Assembly (NCBI GenBank): GCA_965212015.1
Contig: OZ243037.1
Coordinates: forward strand, 1,216,001 to 1,280,000
Source of the DNA: Cenarchaeum sp.
GTDB lineage: Archaea > Thermoproteota > Nitrososphaeria > Nitrososphaerales > Nitrosopumilaceae
DNA length: 64,000 nt
Reading direction: 5' to 3'
Positions 58,305-64,000 of this stretch are shown here, one piece after another. Within the stretch, counting starts at the first letter, position 1. Every line of letters begins with the position of its first letter. A program made the translations under genes and the position numbers. Below the pieces are notes generated by a model. The model made no database searches and had not been told where the DNA came from. It was given only the letters and a program-made list of their open reading frames with translations.

Positions 58305-61300
58305 CTAGCCTGCAAAATCCGAAAGCAGCGCCTGATCCCCCCGGCTCTTTCCAAAGACCAGATCAATCTCGTCGGAGAGGGCGTGAATCCTTCCGCGCTG
58401 ATACCTGCTGACGTTGTATTTTTCAACCAGGCGTTTTGCAAGCTTGAGGTATTTTTCTACGGACGGTCTTGTGATGGTCTGGATGAGGTCGTGCTTGCAG
58501 GCGCAGCGCTGGGTCAGCGGGGCCCTCCTGTAGCTCCGGCCGCACAGGGTGCACCGCAGGTTCTGCCTTGCATACGACCTGAGGTTTCCCATTATGTCCG
58601 GCACCAGGTGCGTGGAGATGACGTTTGAGACCGTCTCTGCGGTGTCTACCACGTCGATCATGTCTGCGTTTCTTATCTGCAGATCAAACTTGTCAAGCAT
58701 CGAGTCAAGCGTAGAGTACGCGCTGCGCGACTTTGAGGTGGTCAGCGTGGATGTCTGGTGCGTAAAATGATAGTTGCTGAACTGCTCCCTTGTGTCCAGG
58801 CGGGATTTTATTATCTCGACGCAGTCAATGGCGGAGGCCTTGTGCCGCAAAAGCGTGGACTCGTAGAACTCTAGGGGGAATGACTTTGTGACCTCGAGGT
58901 TGTGCGCCTGCGGCTGCGATTCGTGCGGCAGTACCAGCGGCTGAATCAAGAGTGGCGCGTCCATCAGTCCCCCGATCTTGTCGGAGAGAAACTGCCGCGA
59001 AAAGTTGAGCAGTGCGTCCATCAGCAGTATGATCGAGTCTGCGTCCCCGTCTGCGTCCCTGCGCTTGGCAGAATGCCAGTTGGGCGTGGCAAAGCACACG
59101 TGGGTGTTGGTATAACCCACAACCCTTGCGACTATTCCGACGGACGTGTGGGGGGCGAGCCCCACTACCAGGTGGCCCAGCAGCTCGTCAGTGTCCGAAA
59201 CGTTGTAAAATTTTGGCCTGCCGTAAAATTTGTCGAGTTCGGCATCGACGTATTTGCAAATGTTCACCAGATACCTTGCCGACTCGAACGGGATTATAAT
59301 GTCCTGCATTTTGAGCTCGACTGTCTGATCCGGGTCGGTCAGCTCCCTTCCTTGCGCGTCTACAAGATAGCCTAGCTCCCTGAGCCGCTTGGGACTAGTC
59401 CCGATCCATGACGGCTTGAAATGCGTCAGGGGGGAGTTTGTTGCGTCAAATCTCACCGTGCCGTCCTTAAAGACGGTAAGGCCCCTGCTCTGCCTGATCA
59501 GCCCCTTTTCTAGCGGTTCGGCTATCTTGTCCTGGTTGATGAGATCCCTTACGCCCTTGAGCGGCTCTTGCGCCCTGATGCCGGTCTTTTCCTGGGCGTA
59601 CAGCAGCTTCTTTTTTAGCGGAAAATTTTTGTAGGAATGCGAGATGCACTGCCTCTTGCATCTGTCGCAGTACTGTTCGCCTAGTACGGATCTGCACGCA
59701 GGGCACGTATACGCAAGCACGGTCTTTGAGCCGCAGTTCTGGCACCTGATCCCGATGGAAAGCTCGCCGCACTGCTTGCATGTCCGGTCCGATATGTTGG
59801 TGTAAAAGTCCGGCTGTGACGACGCCCTGAGCAGGTCGCGGGTCATTCCGCCCTTGTTGGCAACTGGAAACAGGCAGTGAGTCGGGGGCTTCATCTGCCT
59901 TGGCGCCGCCTTTTCTGGCCTGCCAATTCTCACGCCAATTGAGGTGGAGAACTTGTTGCGTATTGTAATTCCCGAGTATTTTGAGATCAGCTGGGGGACC
60001 GGGACGGATCTGTCAATCTCTGGCTTTTTCTTGAACAGGAGGCGGGAAAATATCCGGGCCTCGTCCCCGTCGAGCAAAATTCCAGAGTCATCAACCCTGT
60101 GCGGCACTGCCAGCCTCTCCAGTATTCTCTTGCAGGAGGGCCGATACCTTATCGAGTTCTCGCCTGTCTCCGAGGGCGCCAGAATCTCTGCAAGCTCGTC
60201 GTGGGAGATTTTATCCCAGTAAAACAGATACTTTGGATGCAGCGGGATTCCGTGATCCTGCGCCAGTCTCACGGACTCGTCTAGCGACGGAATCCTCCCA
60301 AGAAACTCCGAGGCGCCGCCGGCATCCCCGGGGAGTTTTTTCCTTAGATCCTCAATCCAAAACTCCTCGACGTATCCGGAGGGCACCAAATGCGCATTGT
60401 TCTCAAGAAAGTCGCCAAACGAGATTAGAATGTCGCCAAGGTGAAGGATTTTTTCCACCTGGCCCCTGACTTTGATGCCGTGCTCGGCGTCGCGGATTTT
60501 GACTACGTCCCCGTTTTTGAGCCGCACCGTGGGAGTCTCGATAGAGTCAACGAATGCCACGGTGGCGCCCTTGCCGGGAATGTCTATTTTTATCTGTGTT
60601 CCCACGGCGATGGTGTGATCCAAAATCTCTGCGACGGCCGGATGAAACCCTACTGAGGCAAAGCCGGTGTTGCACGACCTGCCGTACCGCAGCCTAAAGC
60701 CCCCAAGCTTGTTTGGGGCAGACAAAACTGAGCGGCCGGCGATCACCTCGCGCATCCTTTTTGCCGCCGCATCCTCCTGGCTTTCGCCGGTCTGGACTGC
60801 GCCTTTGAGCTGGCCCAGCCAGTCCCAGCCGTCAAGCTTGTACAGCTCGATTCTCTTTACAAGTTTTTTTGATCTGCCAATCAGCCCGTCGTTGAGGACC
60901 CGGAGGGCGCCGCCCCTTACCCGGTCGGTCTTTATCCTGGCCATGCCCTTGTGGTTTACCACCTCGAAGGGATCGGTATCCACGCCGTCAATCTCCACGG
61001 GAAGGTTCGAGATCACCCGGATTATGTCCTCGTCTAAGACATGGAACTGAAAGTTTCCGGCCTCGCGTTCGTATATTCGCAGCTCCTCTACAAACCTGCC
61101 CGTCTCGTCGTCAAACGAGTTTGCCTGGTAGCTTGACAGTCCGACTGCCTTTCTTACGTGATCCGCAATCAGTATTGTAACTGCGGATTCCGTTCCGCCC
61201 GCCGAGCGCATGGGTCCGGCAATCGAGACTGAAAGATAGTCGCTGCCGTCCTTGTTTTTCCTTATTCTTATCTCCGAGATTCCCTGCAGCGGGGCAATCG

Positions 61301-61676
61301 TGACGCCCTCTGTGACTATTGCCAGCCCCACCCTTACTGCGAGATCAAGCCTCTGCTCCAGCGTAGAGTTGTCTGCCATGTACTTGCCCAGTGCGATCTC
61401 GCCGGACAGGGTCAGCGCAGAGATCTCCTTGCCGTTGGTCTTTAGCAGCTTGCGCAGCGGTGCGGCGATGTCGATGTCGTGCATCTTGGAGACGCGGTCG
61501 GCCAGGTCAAATGCTATTTTGGGCTCTATCATGCCAGACGAGTCGACAAGCGTGGATTTTGCATCTGCGGCCTTTTCAAATATAGAGTGAGATTCCAGTG
61601 ACAGGCCGGAGTAATAGTCGCGGTACGAGTCCGGCATGTCAATGCCTTCAATGCGGGTTATGGCGTTGTCTGACAT
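58305..61676 (-). CDS. polC: DNA polymerase D large subunit DP2 (no intein)
   Basis: AGPMRSAGGT, GGFRLRYGR, IGRPEKA, FKDGT.RFD, HSAKRRDADGDAD, GGLMDAPL; Zn fingers. Confidence 0.97.
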   Translation of the reverse strand: MSDNAITRIEGIDMPDSYRDYYSGLSLESHSIFEKAADAKSTLVDSSGMIEPKIAFDLADRVSKMHDIDIAAPLRKLLKTNGKEISALTLSGEIALGKYMADNSTLEQRLDLAVRVGLAIVTEGVTIAPLQGISEIRIRKNKDGSDYLSVSIAGPMRSAGGTESAVTILIADHVRKAVGLSSYQANSFDDETGRFVEELRIYEREAGNFQFHVLDEDIIRVISNLPVEIDGVDTDPFEVVNHKGMARIKTDRVRGGALRVLNDGLIGRSKKLVKRIELYKLDGWDWLGQLKGAVQTGESQEDAAAKRMREVIAGRSVLSAPNKLGGFRLRYGRSCNTGFASVGFHPAVAEILDHTIAVGTQIKIDIPGKGATVAFVDSIETPTVRLKNGDVVKIRDAEHGIKVRGQVEKILHLGDILISFGDFLENNAHLVPSGYVEEFWIEDLRKKLPGDAGGASEFLGRIPSLDESVRLAQDHGIPLHPKYLFYWDKISHDELAEILAPSETGENSIRYRPSCKRILERLAVPHRVDDSGILLDGDEARIFSRLLFKKKPEIDRSVPVPQLISKYSGITIRNKFSTSIGVRIGRPEKAAPRQMKPPTHCLFPVANKGGMTRDLLRASSQPDFYTNISDRTCKQCGELSIGIRCQNCGSKTVLAYTCPACRSVLGEQYCDRCKRQCISHSYKNFPLKKKLLYAQEKTGIRAQEPLKGVRDLINQDKIAEPLEKGLIRQSRGLTVFKDGTVRFDATNSPLTHFKPSWIGTSPKRLRELGYLVDAQGRELTDPDQTVELKMQDIIIPFESARYLVNICKYVDAELDKFYGRPKFYNVSDTDELLGHLVVGLAPHTSVGIVARVVGYTNTHVCFATPNWHSAKRRDADGDADSIILLMDALLNFSRQFLSDKIGGLMDAPLLIQPLVLPHESQPQAHNLEVTKSFPLEFYESTLLRHKASAIDCVEIIKSRLDTREQFSNYHFTHQTSTLTTSKSRSAYSTLDSMLDKFDLQIRNADMIDVVDTAETVSNVISTHLVPDIMGNLRSYARQNLRCTLCGRSYRRAPLTQRCACKHDLIQTITRPSVEKYLKLAKRLVEKYNVSRYQRGRIHALSDEIDLVFGKSRGDQALLSDFAG

Positions 61677-61682
61677 TGCGGA

Positions 61683-62438
61683 TCACTTTCTGGTGCCGTG
61701 GATCGCTTTTACTATTTCGGCGAGCTTTGCAAGTTTCTGATCCCCCTCCAAGAGAGTCCCAATCACGATGGCGTCCGCCCCGGCATCAGATATCTGTCTG
61801 GCAGTCTCAGCATCCCTGATTCCGCCGCCGACAATCAGGAATCCGTCAAAGACGCCTCGGATCGTCTTGATCATCTCGGGCCTGACGCTGGATTTGGCGC
61901 CAGAGCCGGCCTCCAGATAAACAAACCGCATACCCAAAAACTGCGCCGCCAGCGCATATGCTGCGGCAATCTTTGGCTTGTCAAAGGGAATTCCCCGGGC
62001 GGAGCCCACAAACCATGCCGATGTTCCCTCGCCGATGACCAGGTATGCCGTGGGCAGGGGCTCTAGGCCGAATTTCAGTACGCTTGGCGCGCCCAGCGCC
62101 TGCGCCTGCGTGATAAAATACGGGTTTTCAGAGTTCATCAGGGAGCTAAAAAGGATCGCGTCGGCCTCAGGAACGACGCCAGTCACGTTTCCGGGGAAAA
62201 GAATTACCGGAATCTTTACGGATTTTTTGATGTTTCCAACTACTGCGGACATTTCCATCTGGTCGGTGGCCGACGATCCCCCGACTAGTATTGCAGAGGC
62301 GCCCATCTCCTCTACCCGCCTTGCGAGGCCCTCCGAGCTTGCCATATCGGACACCTCAGAGTCGATAAGGACAAAGAGCAGGGTCTTTTTTCTTTTTAAT
62401 TCGGACTTTAGATGGTTCTCGGTGTCGTTTTTAGGCAT
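61683..62438 (-). CDS. Geranylgeranylglyceryl phosphate synthase
   Basis: LVGGS, PVILFPG, SLMNS, YLEAGSGA, VGGGIR. Confidence 0.93.
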   Translation of the reverse strand: MPKNDTENHLKSELKRKKTLLFVLIDSEVSDMASSEGLARRVEEMGASAILVGGSSATDQMEMSAVVGNIKKSVKIPVILFPGNVTGVVPEADAILFSSLMNSENPYFITQAQALGAPSVLKFGLEPLPTAYLVIGEGTSAWFVGSARGIPFDKPKIAAAYALAAQFLGMRFVYLEAGSGAKSSVRPEMIKTIRGVFDGFLIVGGGIRDAETARQISDAGADAIVIGTLLEGDQKLAKLAEIVKAIHGTRK

Positions 62439-62503
62439 AGCACACATTCGGCGGAGGCTCTTTAAAGTTTAAGTGGAGTACCGTTATACTGTTTTGTATA
62501 GCT

Positions 62504-62866
62504 ATGGCGGAGCATAAAGGATCTAATTTCAATAATATTATACAAAAAATTATAGAAAAATCGTTGTTTACAGAGAGACAAATTGAAATTATTTTAGATC
62601 GTAGAAACATTTCAGAGGCGGATTTTAGGATAAGCAGGGGGGCATATTACAGGCAAGTAGGCCAATCTAGGAACAAACTGGCCAGATTCTACTATACCGT
62701 GGCCCTTTTGCGGGGTTTGGGCGTACTTTTGCCCGATGATATTGATGTGATATCAAATCTGGCAGAAAAGATTTCCGTGATAAAAGACAGTGATGTTTTG
62801 GCCGGCCAGGAAGACGAGATTGTAGACGTCATTGACAGGGTGGTTCGGCAGGCATGCAATATGTGA
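62504..62866 (+). CDS. Hypothetical protein, probable HTH DNA-binding (Tfx-like)
   Basis: SLFTERQIEII...ISRGAYYRQV.Q pattern; AT-rich coding sequence. Confidence 0.65.
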   Translation: MAEHKGSNFNNIIQKIIEKSLFTERQIEIILDRRNISEADFRISRGAYYRQVGQSRNKLARFYYTVALLRGLGVLLPDDIDVISNLAEKISVIKDSDVLAGQEDEIVDVIDRVVRQACNM

Positions 62867-63512
62867 TTTGTGATGATCTTGTTGCGTGCAGGCAGTCTCC
62901 AAGGCGTGATTATTGGTGATTCAAATGTTAGTCTAAATGTGAAATTATATTGTTCTATCACAATAAATCACGGTGATTTCATGTATGTGTGATGTTGGTA
63001 GAGATTCCCGATATGGATGTAATTTTAAGCTGGGTTGTGGCGTTTCTGGTGGGAGTAATCGGCCTGTCCCTATACTACAAGCTAAAACCACGCCTGAGCA
63101 TCGGACGAAAAGGTGATGAGGGGGCGAGTCTGGAACGCCTAGAGTACTATGAAAAACAGCTGATTGATATGAAAATACGCCTAGATGCACTCGATATGGT
63201 GTCCGAGCCGGAACCGGCAGGCAGTACCGGGAATACCGCACAGGCACCAGCCAAAAACACTGCAAGGCCGGAGTTTGAGGCGGAGGCTGCCAGACCAGAG
63301 CGCAGACGGCGCGAAAGCACGCCTAGTTATGATCACGCAAACATCACAGACTATGTGTTACGCCTAATCACAGACAAGCCCATGACATCACGTGACATAC
63401 AAGTCACAGTAGGCAGAACGAGGGAGCACATCTCCAGACTAATGAAAAAGCTTTTTGAAGACGGCCTTGTAGAAAGAAACACCGCCGCAAAACCATACAC
63501 ATACTCCATCAC
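62747..63512. repeat. Dispersed GTGAT/ATCAC pentamer array (17 copies counted)
   Basis: GTGAT at 62747, 62777, 62790, 62863, 62870, 62906, 62916, 62973, 62989, 63113; ATCAC at 62957, 62967, 63332, 63343, 63367, 63387, 63508. Confidence 0.75.
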
Positions 63513-63567
63513 AGAAAAGGGCAGGACGGGCCTGGGTATAATCAAGCCGGTGCCGGTTGCCGTATGA
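62989..63567 (+). CDS. Membrane-anchored winged-helix DNA-binding protein (TM - coiled coil - linker - wHTH)
   Basis: N-terminal TM, LEYYEKQLIDMKIRLD coil, Pro/Ala linker, MTSRDIQ..VGRTREHISRLMKKL...GLVER...Y.ITEKG. Confidence 0.85.
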   Translation: MMLVEIPDMDVILSWVVAFLVGVIGLSLYYKLKPRLSIGRKGDEGASLERLEYYEKQLIDMKIRLDALDMVSEPEPAGSTGNTAQAPAKNTARPEFEAEAARPERRRRESTPSYDHANITDYVLRLITDKPMTSRDIQVTVGRTREHISRLMKKLFEDGLVERNTAAKPYTYSITEKGRTGLGIIKPVPVAV

Positions 63568-63600
63568 TTGGGATCGGGCAGGGGGCTTTCTTTCAAAGTG

Positions 63601-63674
63601 TAGATTTTTTATGATAATTTATAATTCTTTTATTTTGATAAATTACATATATTAATATATTACAATATTATAAT
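63601..63674. promoter_or_regulatory. Extremely AT-rich tract with a 14-bp palindrome
   Basis: 6 G/C in 74 nt; ATATATTAATATAT at 63647-63660. Confidence 0.6.
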
Positions 63675-63680
63675 GCCGGC

Positions 63681-63842
63681 ATGGAAGAGGCGCCTCAGGA
63701 AATATTAGTCAAGATATCATCCACGGGCACAATCTCGCTTCCAAAACTATACCGAAAATACATGGATCTGCAAAAGGGCGACTATGTCAGGGTGGTTTTG
63801 AACAGTGACGGCCTGTCAGTCAAAAAGGCGACGATCACTTAG
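63681..63842 (+). CDS. AbrB/MazE/SpoVT-family DNA-binding protein (53 aa)
   Basis: Hand translation: MEEAPQEILVKISSTGTISLPKLYRKYMDLQKGDYVRVVLNSDGLSVKKATIT. Confidence 0.85.
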   Translation: MEEAPQEILVKISSTGTISLPKLYRKYMDLQKGDYVRVVLNSDGLSVKKATIT

Positions 63843-64000
63843 CGTATTGTGGGCTGTTTTTGGGCCAGTTTAATGATCTGATAGGTCCATTCCCGGCCTG
63901 TTTTTGAGCGCTGCACCCTGCCTTTTTGGGCAAATCTGGCCAGATATGTGGATATGATGCTCAGTTTGATCGGCTCGTTGTATTCGTCCTCGTATTTCTC
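63839..64000 (-). CDS. 3' end of a winged-helix protein (partial, begins beyond the window)
   Basis: ...EKYEDEYNEPIKLSIISTYLARFAQKGRVQRSKTGREWTYQII...stop. Confidence 0.7.
   Translation of the reverse strand, partial: EKYEDEYNEPIKLSIISTYLARFAQKGRVQRSKTGREWTYQIIKLAQKQPTIR

Follow-up and report, generated by a model that had tools for sequence, protein, structure and literature searches.

The 64,000-nucleotide stretch analyzed here (the window, genome positions 1216001-1280000 of the single 1,764,220-bp contig of a Cenarchaeum sp.) carries near its right end an array of short boxes, GTGAT or its complement ATCAC, which runs from 62747 to 63512. The array is overlaid on two open reading frames (ORFs) of the plus strand, ORF1 (62504-62866) and ORF2 (62989/62992-63567). 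The 120-aa product of ORF1 is all-helical and belongs to an unnamed family, with a helix-turn-helix (HTH)-like N-terminal part and a C-terminal helical hairpin. ORF2, of 191 aa when counted from 62992, has an N-terminal membrane anchor, a heptad-like helix, a linker of variable length, and a C-terminal winged helix. The present analysis shows that the array is unique in the genome, that it is conserved at synonymous sites, and that it adjoins the replication origin (oriC).

The array comprises 17 matches, ten GTGAT (starting at 62747, 62777, 62790, 62863, 62870, 62906, 62916, 62973, 62989, and 63113) and seven ATCAC (62957, 62967, 63332, 63343, 63367, 63387, and 63508). GTGAT lies mostly on the left and ATCAC mostly on the right, and the two orientations meet in the spacer between the genes, at 62867-62988. 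Three clusters stand out: A (62747-62794, plus strand), with GTGAT boxes at codons 82, 92, and 96 in the 3′ part of ORF1; B (62863-62993), with eight intergenic boxes reaching from the ORF1 stop through the ORF2 start; and C (63332-63512, minus strand), with five ATCAC boxes within the part of ORF2 that encodes the winged helix-turn-helix (wHTH) domain. A sliding 770-bp count of GTGAT/ATCAC over the entire genome has its sole maximum at this locus, with 17 copies compared to 8, 8, 8, 8, and 7 for the runners-up, and the genome-wide density of 2.08 per kb on both strands corresponds to about 1.6 copies per 770 bp. An earlier reading made from the letters alone (below, the sequence-only reading) had reported 17 polarised copies laid over two coding regions; our position list and the ORF coordinates reproduce this exactly, and the genome-wide count that it called for has its peak here.

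The second-rank clusters, of eight copies each, lie inside ordinary ORFs and show no pattern. Same-strand pairs at a spacing of 10 bp number eight in the genome, for about 3.8 expected, and two of them belong to the array. A wider regulon was considered and rejected, as neither a second GTGAT target cluster nor an excess of 10-bp pairs occurs elsewhere in the genome. The repeat search returned no long repeat family within the array, the common part being the 5-bp core with weak flanks. The boxes are asymmetric rather than palindromic and mostly direct within each arm, and the single 11-bp palindrome, at 62967-62977, is not conserved in the spacers of the family. Two longer pairings are present in this genome, namely the inverted repeat I4 (62905-62920 / 62957-62972) and I7, a pair of 14 nt and 86% complementarity that joins one upstream and one downstream box. 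In a comparison with contigs of four runs, a close strain differs at 13 positions in 62300-63900, none of which falls within a pentamer; with only 0.7 expected there, this carries no information on constraint.

ORF2 has an orthologue in 39 of 41 relatives, and in 24/24 of the same family. The family comparison rests on 22 full-length loci, the present one included, which range from 31 to 61% in GC content. All 22 carry the array: around the start of ORF2, 900 bp hold 11-18 copies, versus 1-14 in the remaining 1.7-2.7 kb. The layout is also shared and, relative to the ORF2 start, consists of GTGAT from about -260 to -70, one or two ATCAC near -35, GTGAT on the start itself, and ATCAC at about +340 to +420 and at +520. 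Pooled over the family loci, the region upstream holds 135 GTGAT and 3 ATCAC, and the region from +300 to +600 holds 14 GTGAT and 80 ATCAC. Within ORF1, the boxes at codons 82, 92, and 96 are kept in 19, 20, and 19 of the 22 loci, respectively, and a further box at codon 109, lost in this genome, is kept in 18. Within ORF2, the GTGATG at the start is kept in 17 loci, and the boxes at codons 148, 154, 160, and 195 in 21, 14, 13, and 9.

At these box columns the choice of codon follows the pentamer. Valine is encoded by GTG in 57 of 62 cases at the columns versus 147 of 425 elsewhere, the figure for valine before isoleucine or methionine outside the columns being 26 of 54, and isoleucine is encoded by ATC in 43 of 55 cases versus 104 of 605 elsewhere. 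The third base after the box varies freely. When synonymous codons are shuffled within each gene (1000 times), ORF2 is expected to hold 66.5 copies over 29 loci, and 170 are observed, at most 5% of the shuffles reaching the observed count in 24 of the 29. For ORF1 the corresponding figures are 62 expected and 106 observed over 27 loci, with at most 5% of the shuffles reaching the count in 9. Related genomes are not independent and Fisher tests overstate the significance, so that the codon and shuffle figures are descriptive contrasts and not exact probabilities. The figures speak for a constraint at the DNA level, and the array is not a by-product of coding, because its place and polarity recur over this whole range of GC content, the shuffles give fewer copies, and codon choice is biased at the sites. 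The sequence-only reading had tied its case to a density above that of codon-shuffled controls and to synonymous-site conservation in orthologous loci, and it holds on both counts.

The spacers of the 22 family loci share one order of parts. A box over the ORF1 stop (ATGTGAT) is followed about 45 nt further on by a second box and then by a aaagtgtgaaattatgttg string, after which come ATCAC-N5-ATCAC or one ATCAC, about 20 nt, and GTGATG with the ORF2 start. The consensus of the box with its flanks is roughly tYGTGATkt. The aaagtgtgaaattatgttg string is found at the same place in most of these spacers, about 43 nt before the ATG, a position that suggests a TFB-recognition element (BRE) and TATA box of ORF2; in the present genome, the promoter-like box aatgtgaaattatattgttc (62935-62956, plus strand) is the putative BRE/TATA for this gene. 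In archaea, activators and repressors act at sites ahead of the TATA box or in the stretch from there to the start codon. The boxes occupy these positions, the ATCAC pair lying between the TATA-like box of the putative promoter and the start, and GTGAT lying over the ATG in 17 of the 22 loci. The minimal function of the boxes would therefore be the control of ORF2 transcription. An autoregulatory operator cluster, which the sequence-only reading had offered as its conservative alternative, would fit the intergenic sites well.

The N-terminus of ORF2 consists of an acidic stub, with at most about 10 residues ahead of the anchor, a hydrophobic 19-aa window (Kyte-Doolittle 2.38), and then basic residues. 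According to the positive-inside rule, a basic flank places the adjoining part in the cytoplasm, and the rest of the protein is thus predicted to be cytoplasmic. The hydrophobic window is kept in 22/22 orthologues of the family, in 13 of 14 from other families of the order, and in 11 of 14 from a sample of the phylum. It is followed by a conserved heptad-like helix (…LERLEYYEKQLIDMKIRLDAL…), a coiled coil as judged from its sequence only, and by a linker whose length varies among orthologues. The C-terminal domain matches Pfam HTH_27 (1.6e-7, aa 121-178), and its Pfam and NCBIfam matches are to models of the MarR/TrmB/ArsR type, not the OmpR type. ORF2 is thus predicted to combine a DNA-binding domain and a transmembrane helix in one polypeptide.

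ORF1 gave no match in sequence searches of Pfam, NCBIfam, and the PDB, and its relatives, which form 2587 database clusters, are named 'hypothetical'. An AlphaFold 2 (AF2) model from a 24-row alignment reached a predicted local distance difference test (pLDDT) value of 62 and was not used; the 30-row version with order-level sequences, which was used instead, is all-helical with a pLDDT of 85.8. Residues 19-79 of this model show a weak fold match to the LuxR-type DNA-binding domain 7vim_A (Z 6.0, root-mean-square deviation 4.2, 59 aligned), and VIA-align places 8hno_A and 9n9q_C at Z 5.0, all of these values being within the noise range for helical models. The wide VIA-align search remained at Z ≤ 6.2, with residues 76-120 matching generic helical hairpins, and Foldseek against the PDB gave no match at E ≤ 0.001. 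An Atlas lead points to Sigma70_r4 at 0.83.

To the left, the array is bordered by a PcrB-family gene (GGGP-synthase-like, GGGP being geranylgeranylglyceryl phosphate; 61683-62447, minus strand, Pfam PcrB 5.9e-53), which is syntenic in related loci, and by the gene of the PolD large subunit DP2 (58305-61676, minus strand; Pfam PolC_DP2_N, PolC_DP2_central, and PolC_DP2_cat, E 1e-95 to 5e-132), which forms the left border of the conserved block. To the right of ORF2 lies a tract of 91% AT (63603-63672). Apart from it, no 80-bp window of the 64 kb reaches 88% AT, and the whole genome has 4 such places, this one included. Relatives of 52-61% GC retain the tract at 80-95% AT and with a taaattatatatattattaa-like core that recurs, and the two family loci without ORF3 lack it. 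The latter gene (63681-63842, plus strand, 53 aa) is of the AbrB/MazE type (Pfam MazE_antitoxin 2.8e-6; NCBIfam AbrB domain 1.9e-6). ORF4, on the minus strand, encodes a winged-helix-like protein of 151 aa with weak matches to CopY and Penicillinase_R; its 3′ part occupies 63839-64000 and it runs off the window, the full gene being at 518-973 in L001 coordinates (window coordinate = L001 + 63321). ORF4, whose product is an uncharacterised protein flanking the origin, diverges from orc1 across oriC and is syntenic in related loci. Its identity within the family is 50-77%, a higher conservation than that of ORF2, and loci of both the order-level and the phylum sample retain it. The DP2 neighbour, the tract of about 92% AT, and the transmembrane and wHTH parts of ORF2 had all been named in the sequence-only reading, in agreement with the domain matches, the AT content, and the hydrophobicity given here.

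The genome has a single Orc1/Cdc6 gene above the family cut-off (genome 1280822-1281910; TIGR02928, 345 bits), whose start is about 0.8 kb beyond the end of the window and about 1.3 kb past the last box of the array; PolD DP1 follows it. Archaeal origin recognition boxes (ORBs) are 20-30 bp long, contain a GGAAA-type core and a G-run, and are repeated in opposed orientation round an AT-rich unwinding element beside orc1/cdc6. Two canonical ORBs, direct 29-bp copies of ttcacgcctagagtggaaaaaggggggtc, are found at L001 1065-1093 and 1126-1154, about 0.9 kb to the right of the array, and an inverted ORB-like pair, cccacacacc…atttccactc / ggaaatgaaggtgtgtggg, surrounds a T-rich tract at L001 ~1213-1340. 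The oriC region is accordingly placed at L001 1000-1340 (window-equivalent 64321-64661), between ORF4 and orc1, and the same origin structure recurs in the orc1-upstream region of 11 compared loci. The cumulative (A+C)-(G+T), or MK disparity, has its global minimum, both raw and detrended, at 1279067 (window 63067), inside the array. The trough is flat within about 60 units over 63000-64750 (1.7 kb) and covers the ORBs too, so that it marks the whole origin region rather than the array in particular, and where exactly the minimum falls is influenced by the keto-rich boxes. The origin of N. maritimus was reportedly mapped by Pelve et al. in 2013.

The array lies beside this origin and is not its initiator-binding array, since the ORBs have a different sequence, with which the GTGAT boxes share nothing, and since the region upstream of orc1 shows no conserved GTGAT among the 11 loci compared, several of which are without any copy. 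One ATCACAGA copy abuts ORB2 in this genome, and in the distant relative L047 an ATCAC follows both ORBs. An iteron origin consists of directly repeated units of 17-22 bp bound by a Rep initiator encoded nearby. The array has no direct units of one sequence of this length, and no Rep-like gene occurs among the ORFs examined. It is not an iteron origin, because the ORBs differ from it and because it stays with ORF1-ORF2 where orc1 is distant. Of the proposal in the sequence-only reading that this is an origin or segregation locus, the adjacency to the origin is thus upheld by the sole orc1, the ORBs, and the MK minimum, and the iteron origin is not.

Some further words near the origin were also inspected. 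ORB halves within ORF2 (ACGCCTAGA; five ACGCCT(A) copies, window 63085-63365) were rejected as probably due to chance, as they are not conserved: the ORB-half word ACGCCTAG has 5 of its 38 genome copies in a 2.3-kb region, 3 of them inside ORF2, and among relatives only the copy at +189 recurs, in 7 of 22 loci, where it derives from IRLD codons. TGTTAAC/GTTAAC words are repeated through the ORF4-orc1 spacer (L001 930-1210, window-equivalent 64251-64531), which contains 13 GTTAA for 1.6 expected and 4 of the 63 GTTAAC of the genome; they are visible in the origins of relatives, including the 11 compared loci, and may represent a second motif of the origin region. The RY disparity and the AT skew have their global minimum at ~1,508,700 and their maximum at ~231,650, unrelated to the orc1 locus, and one of the second-tier GTGAT clusters (8 copies, 1,508,459) is located near that minimum.

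In two genomes of the family orc1 is distant, by 59 kb in G022 and by 8 kb in G010, and the array is intact in both, with 18 and 17 copies, from which it follows that the array belongs to ORF1-ORF2. In G022 (L022/L043, L051), ORF3 and ORF4 are likewise not beside ORF2, suggesting an insertion or rearrangement. The pair is found beside orc1 in 11/15 fetched related loci, 12/14 of the order-level sample, and 10/18 of the phylum sample. The order-level sample comprises one locus from each of 14 further families of the order, in all of which the block DP2-PcrB-ORF1-ORF2-ORF4-oriC-orc1-DP1 recurs, the two loci without orc1 being cut by contig ends. The ORF1-ORF2 segment of these loci has at least 3 times the flank-based expectation of pentamers in 10 of 14, with ATCAC the top 5-mer in 4 and TATCACA and ATATCAC as extended box forms. 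The phylum sample covers 151 genomes, with ORF1 found in 81 of them, once per genome; 18 loci were fetched among the 61 matching genomes outside the family. By tblastn, 13 of these contain both ORF1 and ORF2, and 10 have orc1 within about 5 kb. GTGAT enrichment is strong in 4 of the 13 (p<1e-3) and moderate in 3 (p ~3e-3). In three distant loci (L071, L081, and L064) the enriched words of the segment are GTCAC/ACGTCAC or AACGTC in place of GTGAT; L071 and L081 have the GTCAC/ACGTCAC variant, and L071 is also among the three with moderate GTGAT enrichment. Such variants may reflect a shift of the box sequence, which could be used to look for co-variation with the reader.

An element that is unique in the genome and conserved across many related archaea is very likely to be a protein-binding platform. 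On balance, we consider it probable that the array is a conserved cis-element whose roughly 17 short boxes serve as a multi-site platform for one or both of the DNA-binding proteins encoded at the locus, that it autoregulates ORF2, and that origin DNA is held at the membrane if ORF2 is the reader. The candidates would be ORF2, with its single-pass anchor, coiled coil, and winged helix, and the small HTH-like ORF1. Because the putative ORF2 promoter and the start are flanked and partly covered by boxes, the occupancy of these should set ORF2 transcription, and the boxes in the 3′ end of ORF1 and in the wHTH part of ORF2 would enlarge the complex to about 770 bp. An ORF2 that reads the boxes while remaining membrane-bound would physically tether DNA located 1 kb from oriC. 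The protein binding, the identity of the reader, and the consequence are our inferences. A more far-reaching version, which we advance tentatively and by analogy, and regard as possible but doubtful, is that ORF2 is an archaeal origin-to-membrane anchor, whose winged helices, borne by the coiled coil and a flexible linker, would load onto the array and form a centromere-like complex of about 0.8 kb that fixes oriC to the envelope, with ORF1 as a co-factor or regulator.

Several observations weigh against such a platform. A core of 5 bp cannot by itself confer specificity, and there is no avoidance of GTGAT elsewhere, the window holding 134 copies compared to 115 ± 9 in shuffles. The sequence-only reading had described helical-turn spacing; the spacings of 10, 10, 11, 20, and 30 bp in the array are real, but a general helical phasing is not borne out, as a Rayleigh test over all same-strand pairs is not significant (random trials reach or exceed the observed R in 246-2783 of 5000, depending on period and range). 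The polarity in the coding regions may partly reflect conserved amino-acid pairs (V-I, I-T). Two of the 14 order-level loci are at or below 1.5 times the flank-based expectation and two more at 2.6-2.9 times, and 6 of the 13 phylum-sample loci with both genes show no enrichment. GTGAT is, moreover, complementary to the 3′ tail of the 16S rRNA (GGATCACCTCC is present in the genome). The recognition helix of ORF2, (S/T)REHTxR, is near-invariant across lineages with a strong, a weak, or no array; L079 has 1 copy for 5.1 expected, and L067 has 15 copies with the same recognition helix. ORF2 is therefore not singled out as the reader. The strongest arrays coincide with the ORF1 signature GAYYR..QS(R/K)xKL, although these come from one clade, and a complex prediction for ORF2 (residues 36-191) with ORF1 gave a score of 0.06 and a mark of 0.32, which is evidence neither way. 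The comparative sequences favor ORF2 no more than ORF1 as the reader.

One alternative is a plain autoregulatory operator read by a soluble protein, either ORF1 or an ORF2 released from the membrane, which would have no structural role at the origin, the neighbourhood of oriC being inherited synteny. The intergenic boxes are exactly at the positions of archaeal repressors and activators, the start codon included, the genome has no second target cluster, the array survives the separation from orc1 by 8 and 59 kb, and the ORF1 signature goes with the strongest arrays. We nevertheless judge this explanation unlikely: more than half of the conserved boxes are within genes, at distances of up to 520 bp from the promoter, and are maintained at synonymous sites, which exceeds the need of a simple operator; the membrane anchor of ORF2 is conserved, and the gene pair is often located beside orc1. 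The location of the array, 0.9-1.6 kb from the ORBs and the only orc1, could be taken to indicate an accessory origin element, with boxes bound by Orc1/Cdc6, ORF4, or another protein that controls initiation through titration, sequestration, or activation, much as DnaA-box clusters or SeqA-bound GATC clusters near bacterial oriC. The MK minimum inside the array and the pentamers abutting ORB2 or following the ORBs of L047 are consistent with this. However, the minimum is in part produced by the boxes themselves and its flat trough extends over the ORBs, GTGAT is not conserved upstream of orc1, the ORB sequence is unrelated, the ORB-half copies in ORF2 are not conserved, and the array remains with ORF1-ORF2 when orc1 is 59 kb away. 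We thus hold an accessory origin element to be improbable.

A signal at the RNA level would require the sense GUGAU to act as Shine-Dalgarno-like sites, or to pair with the downstream AUCAC, in the control of ORF2 translation. Besides the complementarity to the 16S rRNA, GTGAT/GGTGA shows a weak peak at -13..-8 relative to the first ATG, to which a small minority of the 1099 long ORFs contribute, the upstream copies are all on the sense strand, and the I7 pair joins the two sides of the array in this genome. Boxes are, however, found upstream of the putative ORF2 promoter and away from the Shine-Dalgarno distance to the start, and the downstream copies, being in the opposite sense, could not pair with rRNA. 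Past the pentamer, complementarity is limited by fixed codons (T-S-R) with no visible covariation, and five-base pairings across 500 nt would be unstable, which makes this explanation highly improbable. Finally, the pentamers could be a mere by-product of amino-acid pairs (V-I, S-D, I-T, T-S-R) and codon bias, and shuffled genes do retain 2-4 copies where the genome rate predicts 1.2, so that some are contributed by the protein sequence. The excess over the shuffles, the codon choice confined to the sites, the eight conserved intergenic boxes, and the outlier status in the genome contradict this, and the absence of any element is scarcely credible. A protein-binding platform remains our preferred explanation.

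The RacA-ram system of Bacillus is a bacterial origin-to-membrane anchor. In Staphylococcus aureus, RicO-ricS joins a DNA-binding domain, a coiled coil, and a membrane element in a protein that reads an origin-proximal motif and anchors origins (10.64898/2026.03.06.710092). ORF2 is predicted to have the same types of parts and lies beside an origin-proximal motif, and the two proteins have no sequence relationship. RicO has an amphipathic helix and nine 18-bp sites spread over ~700 kb, compared to a transmembrane helix and ~17 pentamers within 770 bp on its own gene for ORF2. The predicted tethering of a wHTH by one transmembrane helix is also reminiscent of ToxR, TcpP, and CadC. ToxR-like factors have an OmpR-type wHTH at the N-terminus and a periplasmic sensor at the C-terminus. 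In ORF2 the order is reversed, with the anchor N-terminal and the wHTH, of the MarR/TrmB/ArsR type and not the OmpR type, C-terminal after the coiled coil and linker; there is no sensor domain, and the array forms a single cluster, on ORF2's own gene. The sites bound by ToxR are several, only loosely defined, and in many cases arranged in tandem, and through them the protein tethers promoter DNA at the membrane (PMC10629549).

As in the SegB, AspA, and ParB-parS systems, the sites are at or in the gene of the presumed binding protein, and, as for a centromere, the cluster is origin-proximal (0.9 kb from the ORBs) and unique in the genome. The sites of those systems, however, are palindromes of ~16-23 bp read by dimers, whereas the array is made of asymmetric pentamers in two opposed groups. 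No ParA/SegA-type ATPase is encoded among the ORFs of the DP2-PcrB-ORF1-ORF2-ORF3-ORF4-orc1-DP1 block, to which the search was confined within the genome. AspA, a wHTH protein, spreads more than 200 bp from its site, and the choice between centromere and operator is left unresolved for the SegB sites (PMC5120986). With an ORB-type archaeal oriC, described in general terms in PMC4010727, the array shares the neighbourhood and the adjacency to the initiator gene, but its boxes lie over genes and not round an unwinding element. The unusual features of the array are its opposed groups of pentamers, more than half of them in coding sequence, and its position beside oriC, over the gene of a DNA-binding protein with a predicted membrane anchor. 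The literature searched, outside which the primary origin-mapping paper and supplementary files fall, yielded nothing that describes the array, ORF1, or a wHTH protein anchored in the membrane at a thaumarchaeal origin.

The array is a clear case of a DNA signal that is held at synonymous sites in two genes over a range of 31-61% GC. The block with the PolD subunits, orc1, ORF1, ORF2, and ORF4 is kept across the order and in much of the phylum sample, and this argues for a part of its small, uncharacterised proteins in replication or the cell cycle. A 2016 review counts the centromeres of archaea and the orientation of their chromosomes among its open questions (PMC5120986). For the question of how ammonia-oxidising archaea organise, position, and segregate a single-origin chromosome, the locus offers a concrete handle, namely a unique and deeply conserved cis-element within ~1 kb of oriC together with a conserved membrane-anchored DNA-binding protein and a conserved partner of an unnamed family. 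If ORF2 does anchor the origin, the locus would encode a system by which ammonia-oxidising archaea and related lineages position or segregate their origin or sequester it after initiation, the first of its kind described for this group and a functional analogue of bacterial RicO or RacA.

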